64,000 nt of DNA, from NCBI RefSeq assembly GCF_024223415.1, contig NZ_CP100500.1; one strand, written 5' to 3'. The position numbers and the translations under genes were made by a program. This document shows, in pieces, positions 34,023 to 36,751 of the stretch. The DNA is from Escherichia coli (GTDB lineage Bacteria > Pseudomonadota > Gammaproteobacteria > Enterobacterales > Enterobacteriaceae). The notes below the pieces were generated by a model. It did no database searches, was not told where the DNA came from, and saw only the letters and a list, made by a program, of their open reading frames with translations. Within the stretch, counting starts at the first letter, position 1. Each line of letters opens with the position of its first letter.

Positions 34023-34116
34023 TGTACCGACCGGGCAGTGTTGCTGCCCGGTTCAAACATCATGGCATTCTGTGGTAAACTTCTCGCGATTTTGTGAAAT
34101 CCTGGTTGAGGTATCT

Positions 34117-34818
34117 CTGAACACACCGGCACAGCTCTCTTTGCCACTTTATCTTCCTGACGACGAAACCTTTGCAAGTTTCTGGCCGGGGGATAACTCC
34201 TCTTTACTGGCCGCGCTGCAAAACGTGCTGCGTCAGGAACATAGCGGTTACATCTATCTCTGGGCACGCGAAGGCGCGGGGCGCAGCCATCTGCTGCACG
34301 CGGCTTGCGCGGAATTGTCGCAGCGTGGCGATGCGGTGGGCTATGTCCCACTGGATAAACGCACCTGGTTTGTTCCGGAAGTGCTCGACGGTATGGAGCA
34401 TTTGTCGCTGGTCTGTATCGACAACATTGAGTGTATTGCAGGTGATGAGTTGTGGGAGATGGCGATTTTCGATCTCTACAATCGAATTCTGGAATCGGGC
34501 AAAACACGGTTGTTGATCACCGGTGATCGTCCACCGCGGCAGTTGAATCTGGGATTACCGGATCTCGCGTCGCGACTCGACTGGGGGCAGATCTACAAAT
34601 TGCAGCCACTTTCTGATGAAGATAAGTTGCAGGCGCTACAGTTACGCGCGCGTTTGCGTGGTTTTGAACTGCCGGAAGATGTGGGGCGTTTCTTGCTGAA
34701 GCGGCTCGACAGAGAAATGCGCACGCTATTTATGACGTTGGATCAGTTGGATCGTGCGTCGATTACCGCGCAACGTAAGCTGACCATTCCGTTTGTGAAA
34801 GAAATTCTGAAGTTGTAG
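34117..34818 (+). CDS. hda: DnaA-inactivating AAA+ protein Hda, initiating at CUG
   Basis: AAA+ ORF; a CTG codon at 34117 with GAGG Shine-Dalgarno about 8 nt upstream gives a 233-aa product beginning (M)[13 protein letters not shown]. Confidence 0.8.
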
Positions 34819-34830
34819 ATAAGGTGTTTA

Positions 34831-34911
34831 TTGTCGGATGCGGCGCGAACGCCTTATCCGAACTACGCGAAGTTAATCCATAGAATTCGTAGGCCGGATA
34901 AGACGTGGCAA
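34831..34911. repeat. REP/BIME palindromic units, the second interrupted by the IS element (remainder at 36344-36362)
   Basis: gtcggatgcggcgcgaacgccttatccgaactac and gtaggccggataagacgtggcaa match the enterobacterial REP consensus family. Confidence 0.6.
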
Positions 34912-35438
34912 TGAACTGCACCCCAAATGTTGGACATAATCTGACATCTGAAGGTGCAGTTTATGAAACATTCATTTGAAGTAAAACTTGCCGCTGTAAA
35001 TCATTACCTGGCCGGTCATGCAGGCATCATTTCTACGGCAAAACTCTTTCAACTTTCTCACACCAGCCTCTCACACTGGATTAATCTTTTTCTTCTTCAC
35101 GGTCCTCAGGCACTGGATTGCAGACACAAGCGTAGCTATTCTCCTGAAGATAAACTTTGCGTGGTTCTTTATGCTCTCGGGCATTCTGAGTCTCTACCCC
35201 GGGTAGCTGCCCGGTTTAACATTCCCAGCCACAACATGGTTAAAAACTGGATAAAAGGCTACCGCAAATCTGGTAATGAGGCCTTTATCAGGCGCAGGAA
35301 GGAGAAAAGCATGACCCGTTCTGATGATACCCATGAAAACGAGGCAAACATGACGCCGGAAGAGATGAAGAATGAGCTGCGTTATCTTCGCGCAGAAAAT
35401 GCATATCTGAAAGCCATGCAGGAGCATCTCCTGGAAAA

Positions 35439-36343
<905 letters not shown>

Positions 36344-36391
36344 GCAAGCGTCGCATCCGGCAATGTGCTTCAACTAGCGATGGCGCACATC

Positions 36392-36751
36392 TTAACCCAC
36401 GATTTCCAGTACCTGCTCCGGTGGACGACCAATTCGCGCTTTGCCATTCGCGACCACAATCGGGCGCTCCATCAGCTTCGGATTATCCACCATTGCCTGA
36501 ATCAGCGCCTCTTCGCTAAGCGAACTGTCAGCCAGGTTCAGTTCTTTATAAAGATCCTCTTTCTGGCGCATCAATTCACGGGCGCTATTCATCCCCAGCA
36601 TTTTCAGCAAATCGCGCAGCGTTGCCGCATCGGCGGGTGTCTCAAGGTAGAGCACCACTTCTGGCTCCACGCCGTTTTCTTTCAGCAGGTTCAGCGTTTC
36701 CCGGCTCTTTGAACAGCGTGGGTTATGGTAGATTTTTACCTGTTTGGTCAT
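36392..36751 (-). CDS. yfgD: ArsC/Spx-family thioredoxin-fold protein YfgD
   Basis: 119-aa ORF with N-terminal CSKS motif. Confidence 0.9.
   Translation of the reverse strand: MTKQVKIYHNPRCSKSRETLNLLKENGVEPEVVLYLETPADAATLRDLLKMLGMNSARELMRQKEDLYKELNLADSSLSEEALIQAMVDNPKLMERPIVVANGKARIGRPPEQVLEIVG

Follow-up and report, generated by a model that had tools for sequence, protein, structure and literature searches.

A probable intact and recent IS1397 copy with an A AAA AAG frameshift cassette in a REP loop between hda and arsC of Escherichia coli

IS1397, first described in the primary papers of Bachellier et al. (1997) and Clement et al. (1999) (as given in the reference list of PMC1525189), has as its hallmark the insertion into the loops of REP/palindromic units of E. 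coli (PMC1525189). The catalogue of Sharma et al. (2014; PMC4066793) assigns it to grpIS150 and to the cluster A_AAA_AAG_5, for which frameshifting is graded as 'safely inferred'; this grading was all that we found in the literature when looking for a direct frameshift measurement for IS1397. Table S8 of the same work lists for the 59 sequences of the IS1397 cluster an SD and a hairpin throughout (100% each), the latter being 38 nt long with a spacer of 3 nt and a first stem of 4 bp. Within the same group, IS150 (insJK of E. coli K-12) shares with IS1397 the A AAA AAG motif, a downstream hairpin and the OrfA/OrfB/OrfAB layout, and its frameshift was shown by Vogele et al. (1991; cited in PMC4066793). 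The catalogue entry of IS150 nevertheless differs from that of IS1397, with no SD, a 48-nt hairpin, a 6-nt spacer and a first stem of 10 bp, and IS150 is described as having no specific REP targeting (one of two copies in CFT073; PMC1525189). The dnaX gene and IS911 resemble IS1397 in combining an SD-like sequence located about 10–12 nt upstream, the A AAA AAG motif and a downstream stem-loop. The IS911 entry differs by a 57-nt hairpin and a 6-nt spacer, compared to 3 nt in IS1397, whereas dnaX differs in the outcome of the slip, which is a shorter product (gamma) in dnaX and a longer fusion in IS1397.

We analysed a 64-kb stretch of E. coli DNA (hereafter the window) that contains a single copy of IS1397 (Table 1). 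We estimate at roughly 90% the probability that this element is an intact IS1397 copy carrying an A AAA AAG −1 frameshift cassette and recently inserted into the loop of a REP. Its nucleotide sequence is 100% identical over positions 1–1432 to RefSeq copies of nine complete E. coli genomes and at least 99.5% identical to many further RefSeq IS1397 copies, this identity being judged against copies named by PGAP. The identical copies are labelled 'IS3-like element IS1397 family transposase' and annotated as a two-piece CDS join with the mention 'programmed frameshift'. The features that define the IS3 family are all present, i.e., imperfect terminal repeats of the form 5′-TG...CA-3′, a pair of consecutive ORFs (frames 0 and −1) whose overlap holds a slippery motif, and a DDE (DD35E) transposase domain, and the near-identical full-length nucleotide sequence that defines IS1397 isoforms was found by comparison with the PGAP-named copies. 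Both terminal repeats, reported as intact in the first-pass annotation of this DNA, were recovered by repeat search as imperfect 25-nt sequences that are 84% complementary (TGAACTG...CAGTTCA). A promoter and terminator scan gave nothing beyond shuffle expectation. The element thus has the same sequence as the annotated reference copies, the same length, the same type of target with a 3–4 bp duplication, and the same motif, SD and 38-nt hairpin; it differs from the usual IS1397 by its rare insertion site and by the minority residues M92, Q172 and K175, with otherwise no substantial difference.

Table 1. Features of the IS1397 copy and of its insertion site (positions in the window).
Feature	Position	Strand	Basis
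Complete IS1397 element, IS3 family, catalogued in the IS150 group (1432 bp)	34912–36343	+	Identity to annotated copies
Left terminal inverted repeat (IRL), begins with TG	34912–34936	+	Repeat search, pairs with IRR
Right terminal inverted repeat (IRR), CA at end	36319–36343	+	Repeat search, pairs with IRL
orfA, zero frame, HTH and leucine-zipper-like region	34963–35484	+	ORF reading; PGAP CDS start
orfB part of OrfAB after the −1 slip, stop TAA at 36309–36311	35442–36311	+	Frame reading, NF033516 match, DDE codons
Slippery heptamer A AAA AAG, −1 programmed ribosomal frameshift site	35436–35442	+	Sequence, frame, exact-match fusion, published cluster A_AAA_AAG_5
SD-like AGGAG, putative upstream stimulator	35420–35424	+	Sequence; 6–17 nt rule; Sharma et al. 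2014 Table S8
Predicted downstream stimulatory hairpin, 38 nt, 3-nt spacer	35446–35483	+	Fold, published match
Target-site duplication GCAA, left copy	34908–34911	.	Sequence; empty-site comparison
Target-site duplication GCAA, right copy	36344–36347	.	Sequence; empty-site comparison
Left arm of split REP/palindromic unit, GCCGGATAAGACG	34893–34905	.	Inverted-repeat pair with 36349–36361
Right arm of split REP/palindromic unit, CGTCGCATCCGGC	36349–36361	.	Inverted-repeat pair with 34893–34905

The orfA frame starts with an ATG that coincides with the CDS start chosen by PGAP (IS position 52), an in-frame GTG being also present upstream at 34954, and it ends with a TGA at 35482–35484; OrfA alone is 173 amino acids long. 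The −1 frame had been reported in the first-pass annotation as open from about 35439 through the DDE domain to 36311. Its openness and its end were correctly described, but the frame actually opens 63 nt earlier, at 35376, directly after a TGA at 35373–35375, and the overlap between orfA and orfB is 108 nt long. The conceptual OrfAB protein obtained by a slip at the heptamer contains 449 amino acids, with the junction ...LLEKK|APGAGEK..., and is an exact match to WP_225343597.1 (named 'IS3-like element IS1397 family transposase'); orfB therefore contains neither a stop codon nor a frameshift relative to this reference. The junction peptide expected from this slip is LLEKKAPGAGEK. OrfAB matches the NCBIfam model NF033516 (transpos_IS3) with 389 bits for a cut-off of 160, and the catalytic triad is intact, with D295 encoded at 35844–35846, D355 at 36024–36026 and E391 at 36132–36134, 35 residues separating D355 from E391. 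The precomputed Pfam domain rve (PF00665) was found on a database variant with two residue differences, one of which is a join artefact. The annotation due for this element is IS1397, with a programmed −1 frameshift and a 449-amino acid OrfAB encoded by join 34963..35442, 35442..36311.

The slippery site is formed by a run of seven A (35435–35441) framed by a G at 35434 and a G at 35442. The orfA codons read here gaa (35434–35436), aaa (35437–35439) and aag (35440–35442), corresponding to ...LLEKKRQ... in the protein, so that, in agreement with the first-pass annotation, the heptamer follows the zero-frame X XXY YYZ register. By itself, an AAAAAAG heptamer is not significant, since each strand of the window contains it 11 times for about 3.5 expected from base composition; its meaning comes from its surroundings. 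It is the sole in-frame X XXY YYZ motif within the overlap, and we estimate from base composition that an in-frame A AAA AAG would occur by chance in 36 codon positions with a probability of about 0.002. All 50 distinct relatives compared that have split ORFs and a heptamer contain an in-frame A AAA AAG or A AAA AAA where orfA and orfB overlap. The frequency of P at residue 161 in database proteins (see below) first suggested an A AAA AAC at this place in most IS1397 copies; this idea was rejected, since two other copies, L082 (99.5% identical) and L083 (98.5% identical), read GAAAAAAAG like the window.

The overlap also contains a second A run, G AAA AAA C (35457–35464), whose zero-frame codons are aaa aaa (35458–35463), and a productive slip could take place wholly or partly there, producing an equally open OrfAB with a different linker of seven residues (...EKKRQELEKK-TKVIQ...). 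An AGGAG at 35447–35451 even precedes the second base of this run by 6 nt, the smallest distance that the published SD rule admits. This location is nevertheless highly improbable, because the first base is a G, which makes the heptamer incomplete, because the run falls in the loop of the 38-nt hairpin and consequently has no downstream structure of its own, and because A AAA AAG is the site assigned to the event by PGAP as well as by the published catalogue.

The heptamer at 35436–35442 is accompanied by the two kinds of stimulators listed for IS1397. According to the published rules for bacterial frameshift signals, an SD-like GGAG or AGGA should be located 6–17 nt ahead of the motif's second base, and a hairpin of 17–140 nt should start 4–10 nt past the motif with a G-C or C-G pair, then three or more further pairs, and a stability of at least 7.6 kcal/mol. 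In the window, the GGAG at 35421–35424 ends 12 nt before the second motif base (35437), and the hairpin starts at +4 with the pairs C-G, A-U, G-C and G-C and a stability of 13.1 kcal/mol, in agreement with these rules; the SD and hairpin values published for IS1397 are both matched as well. The hairpin is made of a CAGG/CCUG stem, a 2 × 2 internal loop and a CUGGA/UCCAG stem, and the stop codon of orfA falls inside it. Its folding energy of −13.1 kcal/mol corresponds to a z-score of −3.6, none of 200 shuffled sequences folding equally well, and a downstream structure is thus present at the place where the reference element has one. Its 3-nt spacer is shorter than the 5–9 nt usual for −1 frameshift stimulators.

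The IS1397 copies that were read are about 98.5% identical or more, a level at which covariation support for the hairpin is not obtainable. Intermediate relatives with 60–95% identity (e.g., ISKpn1) were searched for this purpose, with none among plasmids and a protein search swamped by variants with 98–100% identity. The case for the hairpin therefore combines thermodynamics, the catalogue entry and one variant that preserves the structure, A35476G, which is common in other copies and replaces a U-A pair by U-G, keeping the pairing of the 38-nt structure. An Rfam scan gave no match to a frameshift-element family. The first fold included an outer stem GCGC/GUGC (35442–35445 with 35486–35489), which was dropped from the structure as it is broken by G35488A in the L083 copy.

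A perfect 6-bp hairpin, CAGGAG-cau-CUCCUG, was also detected just upstream (35419–35433; −8.3 kcal/mol, z = −2.2). It begins 3 nt after the ancestral heptamer position discussed below, ends 2 nt before the heptamer and contains the SD-like AGGAG; in the L083 copy, C35430T keeps its pairing by changing a G-C into a G-U pair. The possibility that the AGGAG is sequestered in this hairpin counts against the frameshift model, and the structure might be what is left of an older stimulator, or might modulate how accessible the SD is.

By analogy with IS150, IS911, IS3 and dnaX, and in line with the 'safely inferred' status of IS1397, the site would work as follows. Ribosomes translating orfA would arrive at A AAA AAG with two Lys-tRNAs on AAA and AAG, while the GGAG located 12 nt upstream would pair with 16S rRNA and the 38-nt hairpin, starting 4 nt downstream, would stand at the mRNA entrance. 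Together, SD pairing and hairpin would pause or strain the ribosome, and some ribosomes would go back by one base, the tRNAs re-pairing from AAA-AAG to AAA-AAA, and then read the −1 frame. These slipped ribosomes would produce the 449-amino acid OrfAB, in which the DNA-binding part of OrfA is joined to the DDE catalytic domain and which would be the transposase, whereas those that do not slip would produce only the 173-amino acid OrfA. The slip itself, its efficiency and the respective roles of SD and hairpin are all transferred here from these systems and are to be taken as probable.

The homopolymeric nature of the A7 run also suggests another possible origin of the fusion, i.e., that RNA polymerase drops one A of 35435–35441, part of the mRNAs then encoding OrfAB directly. 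Such transcriptional slippage is very unlikely here, first because seven A are few for efficient polymerase slippage, which generally requires runs of about nine or more A or T. Moreover, the motif is in the exact X XXY YYZ register, the SD and hairpin flanking it at distances typical for frameshifting would be irrelevant to a polymerase, and the terminal G of A AAA AAG is kept in 45 of the 50 relatives, which fits slippage of tRNA-Lys. Transcriptional realignment is nonetheless documented in some IS3-family elements, those of the IS1447 group (PMC6211511).

The location of the cassette within the overlap distinguishes IS1397 from its relatives. The comparison was based on 50 distinct elements of the IS150 group with split ORFs and a heptamer, originating from Bacillota, Pseudomonadota, Bacteroidota and other lineages and sharing about 40–57% protein identity with IS1397, IS150 itself being outside this sample. 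In all 50, the heptamer is located at ENAYL-KK, five codons after the Glu, whereas in IS1397 it comes 14 codons after this residue. The motif typical of the OrfA C-terminus in the group (LRxENAYLKK) reads LRAENAYLKA in IS1397, where the heptamer is lost (ctG AAA GCC), and within window 35401–35442 both heptamer and GGAG are found 27 nt (nine codons) downstream of the position used by the relatives. The GGAG is located at −15 relative to the heptamer in IS1397 and in 36 of the 50 relatives. The distance between a protein anchor upstream (frame 0) and one downstream (frame −1) is 74 nt in IS1397 as well as in 36 of 44 relatives, indicating that the site was shifted by 27 nt without an indel. It is about an even question whether IS1397 has a relocated recoding cassette, i.e., whether the old heptamer was lost and a new site appeared 27 nt downstream with the GGAG offset kept and a new hairpin. 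If unreported, this would be a small, clean case in which frameshift site, SD and structure have moved jointly inside an overlap, although it would remain a minor evolutionary curiosity.

Several relatives showed other arrangements. In three Pseudomonas elements (L034, L067 and L070), the ORFs are split without any X XXY YYZ heptamer and the consensus position reads ctA AAG GAG, possibly an A_AAG tetramer motif placed directly before GGAG. One of the three, L067, combines A_AAG at the old position with G AAA AAA at the new one and is a possible intermediate of relocation. Some relatives (L002–L004, L014 and L038; Pseudomonas asuensis, P. oryzihabitans) match residues 2–449 of OrfAB in a single frame, L002 corresponding to a naturally fused transposase without frameshift (...ENAYLKQARSLGS...). 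A single match was also obtained for L031, yet a stop follows the A AAA AAA of its orfA frame.

The RefSeq/PGAP proteins of IS1397 (P0016–P0135) vary at residue 161, which is A, P, R or T, whereas the heptamer is the same in all DNA read. This residue is a P in 110 of 129 full-length database proteins, compared to an A in the fusion deduced from the window, and DNA that is 100% identical to the window copy carries the accession WP_100245061.1 instead of the WP_225343597.1 of the heptamer-slip fusion. This variation probably reflects an annotation convention set by the placement of the join: re-reading c35443 (aag c|cg) would give P161 and re-reading c35445 would give R161. It exaggerates the apparent protein diversity of IS1397.

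The element is inserted between the convergent genes hda (34072–34818) and arsC (36392–36751, minus strand). The junctions read GCCGGATAAGACGTG[GCAA]|IS|[GCAA]GCGTCGCATCCGGC, i.e., a REP/palindromic unit broken in its loop with a 4-bp duplication, and the palindrome is uninterrupted in the genomes with an empty site. This corresponds to the target known for IS1397, the central loop of a REP with a 3–4 bp duplication. Joined with a single GCAA, the two flanks form a sequence that runs uninterrupted in 5420 of 5426 complete genomes of E. coli, with 100% identity over 1000 bp in six of them, and IS1397 is present at the hda-arsC junction in only two of the 5426. Five of the six genomes whose empty flanks are 100% identical hold 100% identical copies of IS1397 elsewhere. 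Identical copies were found at yjjV-yjjW, yjcO-gltP, speB-loiP and gatY-fbaB, every one in a REP loop and three of these four loci with clear 3–4 bp duplications.

With its site empty in 5420 of the 5426 genomes and identical copies at four or more further loci, this copy is of recent origin, and its ability to transpose is very probable. This distribution also bears on the possibility that the copy is inert despite its intact appearance, the heptamer being then a relic, for instance owing to rare residues: among the 129 full-length database variants, M92 occurs in 10, Q172 in 3 and K175 in 8. We give this possibility as little credence as a slip at the second A run, because at least five chromosomal sites, spread over different strains whose genomes have 2–11 IS1397 matches, are occupied by the identical 1432-bp sequence, and because the hda-arsC site is empty in close genomes with 100% identical flanks, a pattern that requires recent transposition of this very variant. 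The initial proposal that the copy looks transposition-competent rather than decayed is thus supported indirectly, by this distribution and by the inverted repeats, the target duplication and the DDE triad, all of which are intact; the copy is not of the kind of the widespread decayed one described below (L084). As judged from these sequence comparisons, the data indicate that IS1397 has probably been active in this lineage. The element and its frameshift signal are already catalogued and ordinary, and their importance beyond annotation is small; as a nearly strain-specific recent insertion, the copy can be used as a lineage marker, and the split of the REP between hda and arsC could putatively change the 3′-end mRNA stability of either gene.

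Other copies illustrate the behaviour of IS1397 at comparable sites. An allele with 21 nucleotide differences is inserted in the hda-arsC palindromic unit of E. coli SK0832 (L083; NZ_AP046542.1, 2151–3582), with the same left junction as in the window but a 3-bp duplication, CAA; this insertion is an independent event on the same palindrome. The 100% identical copy in the gatY-fbaB REP of E. coli ECNB21-M121 (L087; IS at 1501–2932) lacks a clean duplication (left ...gcttcc, right gccagc...), which may result from recombination between copies or from a mutated flank. Between araJ and mak of E. coli AR_0067 (L084; 2083–3052), a decayed IS1397 has lost IS positions 306–765, including the frameshift region, and is annotated as an HTH protein and a partial transposase; a left-junction search retrieved similar annotations in many other genomes. 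IS1397 matches were detected in 3496 genomes, of which only 1707 have a near full-length copy, and remnants of this type may explain the gap.

A second REP/palindromic unit (34826–34867) lies just upstream of the insertion and forms inverted repeats with 34888–34906 and 36348–36364; the insertion target therefore belongs to a multi-REP BIME. The same segment gave a sub-threshold match to the Rfam family naRNA4, a REP-derived RNA (28.5 bits for a gathering score of 59.5).
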